Source: Escherichia coli (GTDB lineage: Bacteria > Pseudomonadota > Gammaproteobacteria > Enterobacterales > Enterobacteriaceae). From it: a stretch of DNA of 64,000 bases. The position numbers were made by a program, and so were the translations under genes. Of this stretch, positions 10,576 through 63,579 are shown one piece after another. Each line of letters begins with the position of its first letter. The first letter of the stretch is position 1. The notes under the pieces were generated by a model. It was not told where the DNA came from. It ran no database searches and was given only the letters and a program-made list of their open reading frames with translations. The DNA lies in NCBI RefSeq assembly GCF_003018115.1, contig NZ_CP027457.1; one strand, written 5' to 3'.

Positions 10576-10611
10576 ATAAAAAAGCCCCCGGAAGGTGATC
10601 TTCCGGGGGCT
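10576..10611 (-). terminator. his operon attenuator (leader terminator hairpin plus U-run)
   Basis: Inverted repeat agcccccggaag/cttccgggggct followed on the minus strand by a T-run, between hisL and hisG. Confidence 0.85.
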
Positions 10612-10674
10612 TTCTCATGCGTTCATGCACCACTGGAAGATCTGAATGTCTTCCAGCACACATCGCCTGAAAGA

Positions 10675-10725
10675 CTAGTCAGGATGATGGTGATGATGGT
10701 GGTGTTTAAATTGAACGCGTGTCAT
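10675..10725 (-). CDS. hisL: his operon leader peptide (MTRVQFKHHHHHHHPD)
   Basis: Minus-strand 16-codon ORF with seven consecutive His codons directly upstream of the attenuator. Confidence 0.93.
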   Translation of the reverse strand: MTRVQFKHHHHHHHPD

Positions 10726-13393: not shown

Positions 13394-13659
13394 AGAAAAA
13401 TTATTATGACAAGCCTCTCATTCTCTTGTCATTTCCCCCCCATTTAGGCACAATGCGCCGCTGTCAAAAAATGACTAAAAACCGACGTTTCATCAGCGTC
13501 GGTTATTTTTTGCTTCAAACCAATCATTCATACCAAGAGGCCGGGCTTCGTACCGGATAGATATTTACTAAAAATCGACAGTTGTTGTCGCTGAGGAATC
13601 CAAAAAAATGGGGCAATTTTTTGCTTACGCGACGGTTATCACCGTAAAGGAGAATGACC

Positions 13660-21791: not shown

Positions 21792-21968
21792 TTAGCGACA
21801 GACATCTTCTGTATGAAGCAAGGCAAAAAGTTCTGCAACTCTATTGTTATTAACCGCACTGGTTACTAACACGTTGTGCGATCCAGCTTCCCGTAACCAA
21901 ACTTTCACCAAAGATATTTCTTCCATGCTGGCTAAATCTGCTTTGGTGACTACTCCAATGATCGGACG
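21792..21968 (-). pseudogene. Remnant of a EutP/PduV-family small GTPase gene (C-terminal about 58 codons only)
   Basis: Minus-strand frame RPIIGVVTKADLASMEEISLVKVWLREAGSHNVLVTSAVNNNRVAELFALLHTEDVCR*; resembles the C-terminus of EutP (RQIAVISKTDM...). No N-terminal P-loop region is present. Confidence 0.4.
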
Positions 21969-35895: not shown

Positions 35896-43878
<7,983 letters not shown>

Positions 43879-44191
43879 GCTTACCTTCCCTGAACGAGCT
43901 AACATAAATGCGCCCTTTCTAGCACAGCGAAAAAATGTAAATCCTGATAGCAATATGATTGAAAATTAATAACTTTTCGTTAGGCAGTTTTGGGGGTGAG
44001 TTGCAAGAGGGGAGACTACTGAATAACTCAAGTTTTATAATCGAGGGGAAAATGGTGATGGCGTTCATAGCAAAACGCCCTCAACCATAAAGGTCGAGGG
44101 CGCTTAAGATGTTAAAAACCCGCTATCCGTTAAAAAACAATGTTCAACTAAGGTCAGTGACATTGCGCTAAAAAAGCGAATTTTTAGAATT

Positions 44192-49992: not shown

Positions 49993-50664
49993 ATGAAGAT
50001 TTTACTTATTGAAGATAATCAAAGGACCCAGGAGTGGGTAACGCAGGGGCTTTCCGAAGCGGGTTATGTCATCGATGCCGTTTCTGATGGCAGAGATGGG
50101 CTTTATCTTGCGCTGAAGGATGATTATGCATTGATCATTCTGGATATTATGCTTCCGGGTATGGATGGCTGGCAGATCTTACAAACGTTAAGAACGGCAA
50201 AGCAAACCCCTGTTATTTGCCTTACTGCAAGGGATTCTGTCGATGACAGAGTCAGAGGGCTGGACAGTGGAGCAAATGATTATCTGGTAAAACCTTTTTC
50301 ATTTTCTGAGTTGCTGGCAAGGGTTCGGGCACAATTAAGGCAACATCACGCTTTGAATTCAACATTAGAAATCAGCGGCTTAAGAATGGACTCTGTTAGT
50401 CAAAGTGTGAGCAGGGACAATATCAGTATTACACTGACGCGCAAGGAGTTTCAGTTACTTTGGCTACTGGCCTCCAGAGCTGGCGAAATTATACCCAGAA
50501 CGGTTATTGCGAGTGAAATTTGGGGAATCAACTTTGATAGTGATACCAATACGGTGGACGTCGCCATTCGCAGGCTCCGCGCAAAAGTTGATGATCCTTT
50601 TCCTGAAAAGCTAATCGCCACAATCCGGGGGATGGGCTATTCATTCGTAGCGGTAAAAAAATAA
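49993..50664 (+). CDS. hprR: Two-component response regulator (OmpR family)
   Basis: ORF 49882..50664; start at MKILLIEDNQRTQEW... (ATG 49993, 223 aa). Confidence 0.9.
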   Translation: MKILLIEDNQRTQEWVTQGLSEAGYVIDAVSDGRDGLYLALKDDYALIILDIMLPGMDGWQILQTLRTAKQTPVICLTARDSVDDRVRGLDSGANDYLVKPFSFSELLARVRAQLRQHHALNSTLEISGLRMDSVSQSVSRDNISITLTRKEFQLLWLLASRAGEIIPRTVIASEIWGINFDSDTNTVDVAIRRLRAKVDDPFPEKLIATIRGMGYSFVAVKK

Positions 50665-52022
50665 TGAAAAGATTATCTATAACCGTCCGTTTAACCTTGC
50701 TTTTTATATTGCTGCTGTCTGTTGCTGGCGCTGGAATTGTATGGACTCTCTATAATGGCCTGGCAAATGAGTTGAAATGGCGCGATGATACAACACTCAT
50801 TAACCGGACAGCACAGATCAAGCAGTTGTTAATTGATGGGGTAAATCCAGATACGTTACCTGTGTACTTTAACCGGATGATGGATGTTAGTCAGGATATC
50901 TTGATCATTCATGGTGATAGCATCAATAAAATTGTTAACCGGACAAATGTCAGTGATGGCATGTTAAATAACATACCTGCTAGTGAGACAATCAGCGCAG
51001 CTGGCATTTACAGAAGCATTATTAATGATACAGAGATAGATGCTTTACGAATTAATATTGATGAAGTTTCGCCATCATTAACGGTTACTGTGGCTAAATT
51101 GGCTTCAGCCAGACATAACATGCTTGAACAGTATAAAATCAATAGCATTATAATTTGCATTGTCGCCATTATACTGTGCTCAGTATTAAGTCCGCTGTTA
51201 ATCCGGACGGGGTTACGAGAGATCAAAAAGTTGAGTGGTGTAACGGAAGCGCTGAATTATAACGATAGCCGAGAGCCTGTTGAGGTTAGCGCATTACCGA
51301 GAGAACTAAAACCTCTTGGGCAGGCGTTGAATAAAATGCATCATGCTTTAGTCAAAGATTTTGAGCGTCTAAGTCAGTTTGCTGACGATCTCGCTCATGA
51401 ACTTAGAACGCCAATTAATGCATTACTGGGTCAGAATCAGGTTACGCTCAGTCAAACCAGAAGTATCGCTGAATATCAAAAAACAATTGCCGGAAACATT
51501 GAAGAGCTGGAAAATATTTCGCGGTTAACAGAGAACATACTGTTTCTTGCCAGGGCAGATAAAAACAATGTTTTGGTGAAACTGGACTCGCTTTCTCTCA
51601 ATAAGGAAGTCGAAAATTTGTTGGACTATCTTGAATACCTTTCAGACGAGAAAGAGATTTGCTTTAAGGTCGAGTGCAATCAGCAAATCTTTGCGGATAA
51701 AATTTTACTACAACGAATGTTATCGAATCTTATTGTTAACGCTATTCGATATTCGCCAGAAAAATCGCGTATTCATATAACCAGTTTTCTTGATACCAAC
51801 AGCTATCTTAATATTGATATCGCCAGCCCTGGAACGAAAATTAATGAGCCTGAAAAACTCTTCCGTAGATTTTGGCGGGGAGATAATTCGCGTCATTCCG
51901 TAGGTCAGGGACTAGGCCTTTCTTTAGTCAAAGCGATTGCCGAATTACATGGGGGAAGTGCTACGTATCACTATCTCAATAAGCATAATGTGTTCCGGAT
52001 TACGTTGCCGCAAAGAAATTAA
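50664..52022 (+). CDS. hprS: Two-component sensor histidine kinase
   Basis: 452-aa ORF with two TM segments, H-box (LAHELRTP) and ATPase G-boxes; start overlaps the hprR stop. Confidence 0.9.
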   Translation: MKRLSITVRLTLLFILLLSVAGAGIVWTLYNGLANELKWRDDTTLINRTAQIKQLLIDGVNPDTLPVYFNRMMDVSQDILIIHGDSINKIVNRTNVSDGMLNNIPASETISAAGIYRSIINDTEIDALRINIDEVSPSLTVTVAKLASARHNMLEQYKINSIIICIVAIILCSVLSPLLIRTGLREIKKLSGVTEALNYNDSREPVEVSALPRELKPLGQALNKMHHALVKDFERLSQFADDLAHELRTPINALLGQNQVTLSQTRSIAEYQKTIAGNIEELENISRLTENILFLARADKNNVLVKLDSLSLNKEVENLLDYLEYLSDEKEICFKVECNQQIFADKILLQRMLSNLIVNAIRYSPEKSRIHITSFLDTNSYLNIDIASPGTKINEPEKLFRRFWRGDNSRHSVGQGLGLSLVKAIAELHGGSATYHYLNKHNVFRITLPQRN

Positions 52023-52118: not shown

Positions 52119-52970
52119 TTAACCCGCGTAAGCTGCCAGCATTTCCTGCGCCGCCAGTTTACCCAACGCATTCGCTGCAAAAGGACTGTCGCCGGTGAAA
52201 AGTTTACGGTCCTTATGTACTCGCCCGGTGATGTCGTCATTAATGATGTTCATGCCCATTTTCTTCAGCTCTTCGCCGAAGTACCAGGTGAGATGACCCG
52301 GCATATAGCCAATCTCTGGCGTTTGTTTGTCTGCGGCGTCTGGGAATGCGCAAATGGAATAACCATTCAGTGGGTTATCGCCGTGGCGAAGCGCCAGAAA
52401 AGCCGCCGGGCCGTGGCAAAGGGAGATAACAAAACGGTCATTTTTGATTGCCCACTGTAAAGCGGCAGCTACGTCCTGGCTTTCAGGTAAACCAATAAGT
52501 GCGCCATGACCACCAGGAACAAAGATTGCTGCATATTCGCTATCAGCGTTGAGGCTGGCGACAACATCCGCGAGTTTCTTCGGATTGCGGAACAACGATT
52601 TATGCTGCTCAAAGAATGGCATTACTTTTTCATCTTTGTGCGGCATAGCCCAGTATTCAAACTTGGTCATCAGACCGGAAATGGTCGCCACTTCGAATTC
52701 GAAACCTGCAGCATGGAGATGATACAACGGCAGCAACGTTTCAATCGGATGGTTACCGGTCGAGAACAGCTTTCCGTTATCGGTCGGCAAATAACGTTCG
52801 TCCGCGGCGATCACCAGAATTTTATGTTTACCGCGATACGGTTTTGGATAGTCCACGCCATCAAGATCAGAGACAGGACTGGTATATTGGCTAAGCGAAT
52901 ATTCTGAAGGGAAGAATGCATTATCTTCAGCAATATCGACCTGCGGATTTTTACTTGTTTGAACAGTCAT
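52119..52970 (-). CDS. hchA: Hsp31 glyoxalase III / protein deglycase (DJ-1/PfpI family)
   Basis: 283-aa ORF MTVQTSKNPQVDIAEDNAFFPSEYSLSQYTSP... Confidence 0.93.
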   Translation of the reverse strand: MTVQTSKNPQVDIAEDNAFFPSEYSLSQYTSPVSDLDGVDYPKPYRGKHKILVIAADERYLPTDNGKLFSTGNHPIETLLPLYHLHAAGFEFEVATISGLMTKFEYWAMPHKDEKVMPFFEQHKSLFRNPKKLADVVASLNADSEYAAIFVPGGHGALIGLPESQDVAAALQWAIKNDRFVISLCHGPAAFLALRHGDNPLNGYSICAFPDAADKQTPEIGYMPGHLTWYFGEELKKMGMNIINDDITGRVHKDRKLFTGDSPFAANALGKLAAQEMLAAYAG

Positions 52971-53483
52971 AGTGTATTCCTTATTGTTGCTTAGTTAGGG
53001 TAGTCACTATATTTGCGACTGAGCTGGTCGCTATTTTTAACCAGGCTGGAAAATTGAGTCAATATATCGAAAGCGGTAGTCGGCGGGTGTAAGTATGTAA
53101 TGATGATGCTGCACTGGTGTTGAATATTATTCACGCCAAATTTTCCTTATTGAGCAACGTCGTCGCAAGTGGCCTCAATGATTTTAGACCATTATCAAAG
53201 GTACGGGGCGGCGGGGAGAGATTTAGTGCTGTGGAATATTGTGGTGCTGATGAATATTTATATCCCGGATTGGTAGAGAAAAAGCTTTTTCCATGCACTA
53301 TTTTTGCAAATATTTCTATATGGGAGGCGTGTTTGTTGCGGATTAATTCATAAAGAAATGTATTTGGAGTGTTGGCTGGAAGAGTAGCTGGTAGAAGATA
53401 TTGTGCCAGGAGGGGCAGGGTAAGGGGCTGTATCGATATGCATTGACAATTGCGTGTGCCGGAGATGGAGATGAAATGCCAAT

Positions 53484-53519
53484 AAAAAAGCCTGAGTTCG
53501 ATGAGGGACGAACTCAGGC
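53484..53519 (-). terminator. Intrinsic terminator downstream of yedS
   Basis: Hairpin gcctgagttcg...cgaactcaggc preceded on the plus strand by an A-run (T-run on the minus strand). Confidence 0.65.
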
Positions 53520-53562
53520 TAGTGTTCAGTTTTACAGTAACACGCCGCGGCGCGTTGACTGA

Positions 53563-54756
53563 TTAGAACTGGTAGACTAAGCCCACAGCAACGATATCAT
53601 CGGTAGCGATGCCGTTTGCTTCGTAGAAGTCATCGTCGTTGTCCAGCAGGTTGATTTTGTAATCAACATAGGTGGACATGTTTTTGTTGAAGTAGTAGGT
53701 CGCACCAATATCAACGTATTTAACCAGATCTTTATTGGTGTAACGTGGGTCGCCGTTGCCGTCATGAGCCCAACCGCCTAAATCCTTACCTTTAGATTGC
53801 AGGTAAGCGATGGACGGGCGCAGGCCAAAGTCGAACTGATACTGAGCAACAACTTCAAAGTTTTGGGTTTTGTTAGCGATGGCTGATCTTGATTCACCAT
53901 TATCAAACTCGCCACCACCATATGGGGTCATATTGCGAGTTTCAGCGTACATAGCTGCTAAATACACATTATTAGCATCATATTTTGCACCAACAGTCCA
54001 TGCTTCAGCGGTTTCACCACCAGCATTTCTGTTGCTATGGTTACGATCATTTAAACCAACTCCAACCTGACGATCTGAACGATCAGAGTTTGAATATGCA
54101 GCACCCAGACTTAAACCGAAGTCGAAGTCATAGGAAGTGGACATACCGAAACCATCACCATTTTCTTGAGCAATGTCCCGACCCTTACCCTTACCAGAAC
54201 CTTCCTGACCGAATGGACCACCGTTTTCGTTATTACTCTGATATTGCAGAGCAAAGTTCAGGCCATCGACCTGACCAAAGAAGCCATTGTTACGGTAGGT
54301 TGCAACACCATTAGCACGACCGTTCATGAAGTTGTCAGCGCCAGCATAGGTATCGCCACCAAATTCTGGCAGCATATCGGTCCATGCTTCTACGTCATAT
54401 ACGACACCGTAGTTACGACCATAGTCGAAAGTACCATTCTGACCAAAGCCTAAACCTGCAAATGCCAGACGCGTTGCAGTATTACCTTTGTCGCTTTCAG
54501 TACCGTTTGCGCCAATGTTAAATTCCCACTGACCGTAACCAGTGAATTGATCAGCGATCTGAGTTTCACCTTTGAAACCGATACGGGCATATGACATGTC
54601 GCCATCGCTGCCAGAATCATCAGAGAAGTAGTGCAGACCCACTACTTTTCCGTACAAATCCAGTTTATTACCATCTTTATTATAGACTTCAGCCGCATTT
54701 GCTGCGCCAGCAACTAATAACGCCGGGACCAGCATTGCCAGAACTTTTCTTTTCAT
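53563..54756 (-). CDS. yedS: OmpC/OmpF-family general porin, apparently intact
   Basis: ORF 53563..54825; start at [37 protein letters not shown]... (397 aa), C-terminal aromatic residue (YQF). Confidence 0.88.
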
Positions 54757-55066
54757 TATGTATTCCCTTGTGATTATAATCTTCATGAATATATCAATAA
54801 GTGCCGTTATCCAAAAAAAGCACATTTGGATACTATTCTATGAAGTTCATTTTATTTTAAGGATTGCATGTAACAAATGTATTTAAAAGATTTCAAAATG
54901 TTTCTAATCTATTTAATATAATTCAGGATTATGAATTCTGAATATAAACATTCATGAAGATTATAAATGCATATCAATATGTTATGAGTTGAGCGGAAAC
55001 ATAGGGGGTATCAATGATTGTTGCGCCAAACGGCTGGTGTGATCAGGCGCACATTAATGAAGGCAT

Positions 55067-55160
55067 AAAAAAAAGCCGGCATCATGCCGGCCCAAAAAAT
55101 ATAAACAAGACGATAAAAGGCTAATAACGGTAGCATCATGACACAGAATAATAAAAAGGT
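55067..55160 (-). ncRNA. Candidate small RNA in the yedS-yedR spacer (possibly RseX); extent approximate
   Basis: Minus-strand intrinsic terminator (gccggcatgatgccggc followed by a U-run) at 55067-55091 with no ORF upstream. The 5' end is not defined. Confidence 0.35.
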
Positions 55161-55384
55161 ATAATTGTAATCAGTGCTAATATATTGATTAAATGAATTA
55201 ATAAAGCCGATATCAAAGATAAATAAAATCGCTCAAAACGATTTTTCCTGTATTCACTGCCGTTGCGCAAAATTTATCTATTTGTTCAAAAAATGATTGA
55301 GTCTTGACTGGCTCATCCAATGTGGAAAAATGTGACTTTTATCACATAATAGTACTAAGTCTGAATTTTCCGGGTTATCTCAAA

Positions 55385-55687
55385 ATGGAATACGGTTCGA
55401 CAAAGATGGAAGAGAGACTCTCTCGCAGCCCTGGCGGCAAACTGGCTTTGTGGGCTTTCTATACATGGTGTGGCTATTTCGTCTGGGCAATGGCGCGTTA
55501 CATCTGGGTGATGAGCCGGATCCCCGATGCCCCCGTGTCGGGATTTGAAAGCGATTTAGGCTCTACCGCGGGAAAGTGGTTAGGGGCACTGGTCGGATTT
55601 TTATTTATGGCTCTGGTCGGGGCATTGTTAGGCAGCATTGCCTGGTACACCCGACCTCGTCCCGCACGTAGCAGACGCTATGAATAA
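55385..55687 (+). CDS. yedR: Small inner-membrane protein
   Basis: ORF 55304..55687; start placed at MEYGSTKMEERLSRSPGGKLALWAF...; two predicted TM helices. Confidence 0.7.
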   Translation: MEYGSTKMEERLSRSPGGKLALWAFYTWCGYFVWAMARYIWVMSRIPDAPVSGFESDLGSTAGKWLGALVGFLFMALVGALLGSIAWYTRPRPARSRRYE

Positions 55688-63492: not shown

Positions 63493-63579
63493 AACACATC
63501 AGATTTCCTGGTGTAACGAATTTTTTAAGTGCTTCTTGCTTAAGCAAGTTTCATCCCGACCCCCTCAGGGTCGGGATTT
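63493..63579 (+). ncRNA. dsrA: DsrA small regulatory RNA (Hfq-dependent; rpoS activator and hns repressor)
   Basis: AACACATCAGATTTCCTGGTGTAACGAATTTTTTAAGTGCTTCTTGCTTAAGCAAGTTTCATCCCGACCCCCTCAGGGTCGGGATTT, with terminal hairpin and U-run, matches DsrA as I recall it. Confidence 0.9.

Follow-up and report, generated by a model that had tools for sequence, protein, structure and literature searches.

The porin gene and its neighbours

The stretch of Escherichia coli DNA analysed here, referred to as the window, is 64,000 nucleotides long and carries the gene order hchA-yedS-rseX-drpB-yedJ-dcm, with hprS at 50664-52022. The downstream neighbour that fixes the synteny, hchA (52119..52970, minus strand), was recognised from the open reading frame list, from annotation and from tblastn matches of 99.3-99.6%. 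The intergenic region on the other side is bounded by the divergent gene drpB (yedR; 55406..55687, plus strand), which is annotated in strain PD4 and in K-12 and has 100% protein identity. The closest complete genome is that of strain PD4 (pig, Cuba), which is 99.9% identical across 2 kb and has the order hiuH-hprR-hprS-hchA-porin-drpB-yedJ-dcm-vsr-yedA. The order in K-12 MG1655 is the same as in PD4, with the yedS pseudogene in the porin slot and rseX between yedS and drpB, and the position between hchA and rseX-drpB is also held by the porin gene in the genomes of five other species. This synteny, together with 97.5% identity to the K-12 pseudogene, identifies the gene as yedS.

The coding sequence runs from 53563 to 54756 on the minus strand (397 codons plus stop) and specifies an intact general porin of the OmpC/OmpN subfamily, an assignment based on the open reading frame list, on Pfam and NCBIfam matches and on alignment to K-12. 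The open frame as listed extends over 53563..54825, and some database entries use a start eight codons further upstream, which gives a protein of 405 residues. We prefer the start at 54756 because it lines up with the starts of OmpC, OmpN and OmpF and because a Shine-Dalgarno sequence, AAGGGA (54764..54769, minus strand), lies 7 nt before its ATG; this element is unchanged in 12 of 12 aligned loci. The Pfam family Porin_1 (PF00267) matches residues 27-397 over the whole of the profile (positions 1-337 of 337) with 477 bits against a cut-off of 23.7, and with the NCBIfam model NF007841 ('porin OmpC') the score is 537.6 bits, above its cut-off of 484. The mature chains of solved OmpC, OmpK36 and OmpK37 structures align from YedS residue 21-22, which supports a signal peptide of 21 residues (54694..54756, minus strand) with cleavage expected before AEVYNKDG. 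This peptide is near-identical to that of OmpC and does not differ between the allele classes sampled at this position. At the other end the protein finishes in VYQF, with a C-terminal phenylalanine. An earlier reading made from the sequence alone had described an uninterrupted 397-residue porin with a signal peptide and a C-terminal aromatic residue, longer than OmpC; the frame, the PF00267 match and the VYQF terminus agree with that description, and the protein exceeds OmpC (367 residues) by 30 and OmpN (377 residues) by 20. The GC content of the coding sequence is 45.6%, against a window mean of 48.5%. The terminator scan placed a hairpin with a T run, resembling an intrinsic terminator, at 53489..53520 on the minus strand, 43 nt downstream of the yedS stop; its 12-bp stem has seven GC pairs and is followed by TTTTTATT.

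In K-12 MG1655 yedS (b4496, 2034051-2035243; formerly b1964-b1966) is annotated as a pseudogene. The window gene is identical to it at 1164 of 1194 aligned bases, and the alignment reveals two lesions in the K-12 copy, a CAG to TAG (amber) change at codon 162 and the deletion of one T at nt 663, which together account for the three historical open reading frame fragments. Neither lesion is present in the window gene. Thus the contention of the sequence-only reading that yedS is interrupted in K-12 and intact here proved correct, and the alignment it had suggested as a check uncovered no frameshift or stop in the window gene and a K-12 sequence that is not identical. In a tblastn comparison the protein matched the two halves of K-12 yedS at 95.5% and 98.3%. 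The 30 nucleotide differences fall mostly within nt ~484-630, the region of loop L4, and the last 531 nt of the two genes (nt 664-1194) are identical. By this pattern, the window allele looks like the undamaged form of the K-12 allele with a small recombined patch.

The intact state is not confined to this strain. The PD4 protein (RefSeq WP_001613326.1, named 'porin OmpC') is 100% identical to the window YedS, a protein differing from it by one residue represents 522 sequences clustered at 90% identity, and other full-length alleles are found on 80, 106, 152 and at least 1000 contigs from E. coli, Shigella and E. albertii. When 5,426 complete E. coli genomes were searched for exact 41-mers over each of the two K-12 lesions, 357 and 371 of them matched; the eight matches listed are without exception K-12 derivatives or laboratory strains. 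A pattern scan for the core of rseX, which covered one genome per species and required an exact degenerate match, returned six loci, in E. coli, E. albertii, E. whittamii, two further Escherichia species and Citrobacter amalonaticus, and in all six a full-length porin gene lies directly downstream of rseX. The scan gave no Salmonella locus, although for an exact-match pattern such an absence says little. The gene has also been lost outside K-12. The EDL933 copy has a separate frameshift, a 1-bp deletion at nt 606, and IS1 insertions are present in yedS of several genomes; these repeated inactivations indicate that yedS is dispensable in some settings. Intact yedS is nevertheless the common state, and K-12 is the exception. 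It is also an ordinary catalogued gene whose intact form was already known and is routinely annotated in RefSeq. According to a paraphrase in PMC4048246, Warner et al. (2013) found an active yedS in a clinical isolate resistant to carbapenems. The region between yedS and yedR has served as a host-informative marker (PMC11267920), and antibodies to a YedS protein were detected in 1 of 141 healthy people (PMC11242715), a rarity which would fit poor expression in the gut or, equally, an allele mismatch.

Barrel, pore and surface loops

Among the K-12 paralogs, YedS has its highest identity to OmpN (72%), followed by OmpC (66%) and then OmpF and PhoE (62% each), and its best solved relative is OmpK37 of Klebsiella, which matches over the full length with E = 1.5e-147. 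By these comparisons YedS is closest to OmpN and OmpK37, not to OmpC. AlphaFold, given 77 diverse homologues, produced a model of 16 strands with a pLDDT of 88.8; a run with 13 close sequences (pLDDT 58) was set aside. When the model was compared with solved structures by Foldseek, it superimposed on OmpK37 (6v78) with a TM score of 0.95 and an rmsd of 2.1 Å, and TM scores to OmpK37, OmpK36, OmpC and OmpF lay between 0.92 and 0.96. An alignment of 13 sequences showed that K37, R58, R96, R147, D127 and E131, as well as the PEFGGD motif (P130-D135), are invariant in YedS, OmpC, OmpN, OmpF and PhoE. Counting on the alignment, the equivalent OmpF residues are K16, R42, R82, R132, D113 and E117. 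The protein has these traits of a general porin: the family profile, a 16-strand barrel in the predicted structure, the L3 constriction, and a signal peptide with a C-terminal aromatic residue. It is likely that the precursor would be exported by means of its 21-residue signal peptide and inserted into the outer membrane through the C-terminal YQF signal. In the modelled 16-strand barrel, L3 with its PEFGGD motif and the basic ladder would form a constriction permitting passive diffusion of small hydrophilic solutes.

The additional length of YedS sits in the predicted surface loops L4-L7. Loop L4 (residues 174-201; 54154..54237, minus strand) differs from K-12, is variable within the allele class and is a loop in the model. 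The region of L5 (residues 226-248), L6 (275-295) and L7 (325-340), at 53737..54081 on the minus strand, contains insertions relative to OmpC, OmpK36 and OmpK37, seen as gaps against 6v78, 6rd3 and the K-12 paralogs, and these too are loops in the model. Glycine, asparagine, aspartate and serine make up 50-57% of the predicted L4-L7 against 37% of the whole protein, which bears out the earlier proposal that a middle region rich in these residues forms surface loops, the loops being those of the AlphaFold model. Within this allele class, variation among 114 distinct alleles is concentrated at residues 181-191, 229-244 and 278-292, all of them in loops.

Comparison with orthologues from five other genomes gave overall dN/dS values of 0.07-0.17 at a dS of 0.3-0.56. 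Taken separately, the loops reach 0.26-0.39 and the rest of the protein 0.01-0.045. To judge from these ratios, the barrel is under strong purifying selection, and selection on the loops is relaxed or diversifying. The loop values remain below 1, and positive selection is not demonstrated by this measure. The surplus of 20-30 residues thus appears to lie in fast-evolving surface loops, L4-L7 in the model, and the much faster evolution of the loops than of the barrel, as estimated here, fits selection from outside the cell, for which phages, immunity or colicins are candidate agents.

The upstream region and its small RNA gene

The intergenic region upstream of yedS (54757-55405) is 649 bp long and has a GC content of 31%, against 48.5% for the window. 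The sequence-only reading had described 630 bp of AT-rich DNA, suggestive of tight and possibly H-NS-type regulation. The AT-richness stands, but the region is not regulatory DNA only, as it contains the small RNA gene rseX at 55068..55157 on the minus strand, in the same orientation as yedS and 311 nt upstream of the ATG. The Rfam family RF01401 matches rseX over its full length with 98 bits (gathering score 50), the terminator scan placed its terminator at 55073-55093, and K-12 annotates rseX at the same place. RseX down-regulates OmpA and OmpC (PMC7648144). In K-12 it is detectable only when hns is deleted, with StpA as a back-up, and 'RseX and surrounding areas' are up in hns mutants (PMC8313858). 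These published observations on rseX in K-12 lend indirect support to the suggested H-NS control. With up to two mismatches allowed, the window contains 89 matches to the H-NS high-affinity motif TCGATAAATT where 78 would be expected, an uninformative difference; three lie in the intergenic region.

A CRP-type site, GGTGTGATCAGGCGCACATTA (55036..55056, plus strand), lies between the terminator of rseX and the leader of yedS; exactly this sequence has been catalogued as a CRP footprint obtained in vitro and attributed to K-12 yedS (PMC12871828). An alignment of 12 upstream regions showed that its half-sites are kept across Escherichia. The same alignment delimits a leader block of approximately 170 nt immediately before the gene (54757..54925, minus strand), a putative promoter and 5′ UTR. 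This block is almost invariant across the Escherichia species and all allele classes and is largely retained in C. amalonaticus, while the sequence further upstream diverges. It contains, at -145, an 11-mer resembling the OmpR C1 box, ACATTTTGAAA, which occurs once in the 64-kb window. The same 11-mer is present upstream of ompC at -176, in a sequence which we take to be the OmpR C1 box of that gene. Also within the block is a predicted sigma-70 promoter, TTGTTA-16 nt-TAAAAT (54849..54876, minus strand), with 9 of 12 consensus matches. The promoter scan returned 8 sites against 8.1 expected in shuffled sequence, so that a match of 9/12 is no better than chance, and it is the conservation of the leader, not the scan, on which the assignment is based. 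A promoter at this position would imply a 5′ UTR of approximately 85 nt, for which the predicted folding energy (-12.5 kcal/mol, z = -0.65) gave no sign of special structure.

Predicted duplexes of MicF, MicC and RseX with the yedS sequence from -100 to +40 were no better than those with shuffled targets (z = 0.2, -0.4 and 0.4, respectively). Of the control pairs, MicF-ompF (z = -5.7) and MicC-ompC (z = -5.2) were recovered, whilst the known RseX-ompC pair gave z = -0.7, and the calculation is therefore insensitive for RseX. In 2013 Warner et al. reportedly described regulation of yedS by MicF and MarA; control by MicF finds no support in this simple duplex calculation. On induction of sigma-E, K-12 yedS mRNA falls 2.5-fold, along with ompC, ompF, ompN and phoE (PMC2731931).

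Taken as a working scheme, these features would have yedS probably expressed at a low level under laboratory conditions. We infer that the gene, lying within the 31%-GC rseX region, may itself be silenced by H-NS. The OmpR-box-like element in the leader and the upstream CRP site suggest that yedS could also respond to OmpR and CRP. De-repression would be expected to raise RseX and YedS together and, since RseX represses the ompC and ompA mRNAs, relief of silencing might plausibly swap the major porins for YedS.

Allele classes, rival readings and related porins

The yedS position is occupied by different porins in other E. coli strains: proteins of 357 residues in Z1323CEC0013 and 167, of 371 residues in SF-173 and of 352 residues in DETEC-C31. 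These are 59-62% identical to the window protein, and the 352-residue class is 67-69% identical to the group of 357 and 371 residues. At the DNA level, the segment from -300 to +60 matches the window at 90-100%, except in two bins of SF-173 (85-87%); identity falls to 22-88% within the coding sequence and is mostly 90-98% past the stop. Probes of 500 nt from the centre of the gene, at 80% coverage or more, detected the long class in 1,648, the 357/371 class in 1,643 and the 352 class in 1,160 of 5,426 genomes; all five Escherichia representatives have the long class. Between classes dS is around 1 or saturated, and one 357-residue allele bears a patch of the long class. The three cassettes are as far apart as OmpF and OmpC, and the window carries the long, OmpN-like class. 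These comparisons suggest a resident yedS locus at which cassettes are replaced or balancing selection acts. A partial search of the yedS literature found no description of this three-class analysis.

We consider it probable (roughly 0.88) that the locus is a functional yedS allele, the fourth general porin gene of OmpC/OmpN type on the Escherichia chromosome, and three other readings have to be set against this one. In many genomes the RefSeq/PGAP label of the locus is 'ompC: porin OmpC', and the NF007841 score of the protein is above the cut-off of that 'porin OmpC' model, as though the gene were ompC or had recently been duplicated from it. However, NF007841 is a subfamily model, which also accepts OmpN (593.8 bits) and gives genuine OmpC 751.7 bits; the protein is nearer in identity to OmpN than to OmpC; and a 2-kb query typically matched three places per genome, which fits yedS and its paralogs. 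K-12 ompC adjoins micF and rcsD, whereas the window gene lies between hchA and rseX. With a different locus, 66% identity and neither micF nor rcsD beside the gene, orthology to OmpC (b2215) is refuted. We give the ompC reading virtually no credence, and the RefSeq gene name is here an artefact of the subfamily model. A horizontally acquired or prophage-borne porin, comparable to the lambdoid Lc/NmpC proteins, might be suspected from the AT-rich flanking DNA of yedS (31% GC) and from the strong polymorphism of the locus between strains, and a foreign origin of the rseX-yedS region has been speculated upon in one paper (PMC8313858). Yet no phage or mobile-element gene is annotated among the neighbours (hchA, drpB, yedJ and dcm), position and neighbours are the same in E. 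albertii, E. whittamii, two further Escherichia species and C. amalonaticus, and the GC content of the coding sequence is close to the window mean. Exchange of coding cassettes by recombination is likely, but amounts to allele replacement at a resident locus. A prophage porin of the Lc/NmpC type is accordingly rejected, for want of annotated phage or mobile-element genes among its neighbours and in view of a chromosomal position conserved across the genus, and acquisition of either kind seems to us highly improbable.

The remaining reading holds that the frame is open but belongs to a relic that is silent, has had no useful expression and is decaying towards a pseudogene like that of K-12. The independent inactivations in K-12, in EDL933 and by IS1 are in its favour, as are the failure to detect the neighbouring RseX in wild-type K-12 (PMC8313858) and the rarity in people of antibodies to YedS (PMC11242715). 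Against it stands the purifying selection on the barrel, which, with dN/dS of 0.01-0.045 outside the loops at a dS of 0.3-0.5, must be of long standing. Moreover, yedS is intact in every Escherichia species representative found as well as in C. amalonaticus, the leader has stayed almost invariant while sequence beyond it diverged, and a clinical isolate is reported to express a functional yedS, at least as paraphrased in PMC4048246. A silent relic is thus unlikely, and we retain the reading of a functional yedS allele. One could go further and regard yedS not as a minor paralog being lost but as a conditionally used spare-porin locus under long-term balancing selection, in which at least three cassettes (59-62% identical, each in approximately 20-30% of complete genomes) stand behind an almost invariant promoter, leader and signal peptide, within flanks of 90-100% identity. 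The H-NS-silenced RseX would clear OmpC and OmpA once the locus is switched on, and in response to one regulatory signal strains would show varied surface porins to phages, colicins or antibodies. This wider proposal is tentative, and we think it more apt to fail than to hold.

The K-12-centred view of yedS as a pseudogene is corrected by these comparisons, and the label 'ompC' at the yedS locus is misleading, as it can make a genome seem to have two ompC genes. Where strains have lost OmpC and OmpF, beta-lactams and carbapenems could find a further way in through an intact YedS, which might also serve as a surface receptor, and porin-loss calls from genome data should therefore include the yedS locus. 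The combination of three deep allele classes, an invariant leader and a porin-repressing small RNA as neighbour is a wider pattern, not specific to this window, and may merit population-genetic study. For this window in particular, the presence of an intact yedS matters little.

Set beside K-12 yedS, the window gene shares locus and neighbours, and the leader and adjacent rseX are the same; the proteins differ at approximately nine amino acids, concentrated in L4 (residues ~174-198). The clinical YedS of Warner et al. (2013), in so far as it is known from the paraphrase, is likewise intact, expressed and of a non-K-12 kind, and has been tied to the entry of carbapenems. In Salmonella, OmpS1 is a quiescent OmpC-like porin of low expression, silenced by H-NS and StpA and induced by over-expression of LeuO (PMC4264507). 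What links yedS to it is a matter of names: 'yedS (ompS1)' in one E. coli paper (PMC2731931) and 'outer membrane protein S1' in a database entry for an E. coli allele. The closest characterised relatives of YedS in both sequence and fold are OmpN of E. coli and OmpK37 of Klebsiella pneumoniae, from which YedS differs in its longer L4, L5, L6 and L7 and in its chromosomal locus. Both ompN and yedS adjoin a small RNA gene, micC being divergent from ompN and rseX in tandem with yedS. OmpC is a major, constitutively abundant porin. It has family, fold, constriction residues and a near-identical signal peptide in common with YedS, and ompC is paired with an adjacent small RNA gene, micF, as yedS is with rseX; however, the two proteins are only 66% identical, their genes occupy separate loci and OmpC is shorter by 30 residues.

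Inactivation of yedS outside K-12 and the naming of the locus

Loss of yedS is not confined to K-12: independent inactivation of the gene has also occurred in other lineages. In O157:H7 EDL933 the reading frame is broken by a frameshift at a site different from that in K-12, and several genomes carry IS1 insertions within yedS, the loci cited including that of strain 20409 (L018) and two further genome hits, H13 and H22. The RefSeq label for the gene at this locus is 'ompC: porin OmpC', both in EDL933 (L013) and in another E. coli genome (L001). This name stems from NCBIfam NF007841, a subfamily model by which OmpN is accepted too, and two ompC genes may therefore seem to be present in one genome.

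Allele classes at the yedS position

Comparison of yedS loci from other E. coli genomes (L014–L017) with the window gene (53563-54756) showed that this position is occupied by alleles of at least three deep classes, encoding proteins of 395-399, 357/371 and 352 aa. Central 500-nt probes for these classes matched, at 80% coverage or more, 1,648, 1,643 and 1,160 of 5,426 complete E. coli genomes, respectively. Proteins of the other classes are 59-62% identical to the window YedS, and the signal peptide is identical among the classes. At the DNA level the flanks of these loci retain 90-100% identity to the window, in contrast to 22-88% for the interior of the coding sequence.

The hchA-yedS gap and the remainder of the window

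Between hchA and the yedS stop codon lies a non-coding gap of 592 bp (52971-53562), in which G-over-C skew is unusually strong, at about 0.5 around 53200-53500. An Rfam search gave no match within this gap, and a 64-aa hypothetical protein is annotated at the equivalent position in one genome. Elsewhere in the window there are ordinary RNA features, namely DsrA (63493-63579), the histidine operon leader (10576-10699) and STnc240 (13439-13513), together with four tRNA matches (25582, 27990, 29811 and 44195) whose positions correspond to tRNA-Asn genes of strain PD4, the closest complete genome.

We also noted that the window lacks a segment of about 17.7 kb that is present in PD4 and holds the pdu propanediol-utilisation operon, pduF and pocR. 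At the junction (window about 21962-21965), DNA just downstream of tmaR (DUF496) abuts DNA just upstream of cobU. A very long minus-strand ORF of 2,685 aa (35896-43953), annotated in PD4 as an Ig-like domain protein, has internal repeats, and window segments 39453-40234 and 40154-40843 also match the adjacent repeat of the PD4 gene, with 86-88% identity and about 600 bp out of register.

The yedS leader, rseX and CRP-type sites

The yedS ATG is preceded by approximately 170 nt of almost invariant sequence (window about 54757-54925). This near-invariance extends across Escherichia species and all yedS allele classes, and largely to Citrobacter amalonaticus, in contrast to the strong divergence of the coding region. 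Within this block lies ACATTTTGAAA, which is common to the ompC upstream region. Further upstream, the small-RNA gene rseX (55068-55157, minus) sits within the AT-rich upstream region of yedS, on the same strand and 311 nt from the gene, and has its own terminator (55073-55093); the initial reading of the sequence had overlooked it. Two CRP-type sites are also present: that at 55036-55056 matches a footprint assigned to yedS, whilst that at 55328-55348, some 60-80 nt ahead of the start of drpB, matches one assigned to yedR. Both footprints are in vitro CRP footprints reported for K-12 (PMC12871828).
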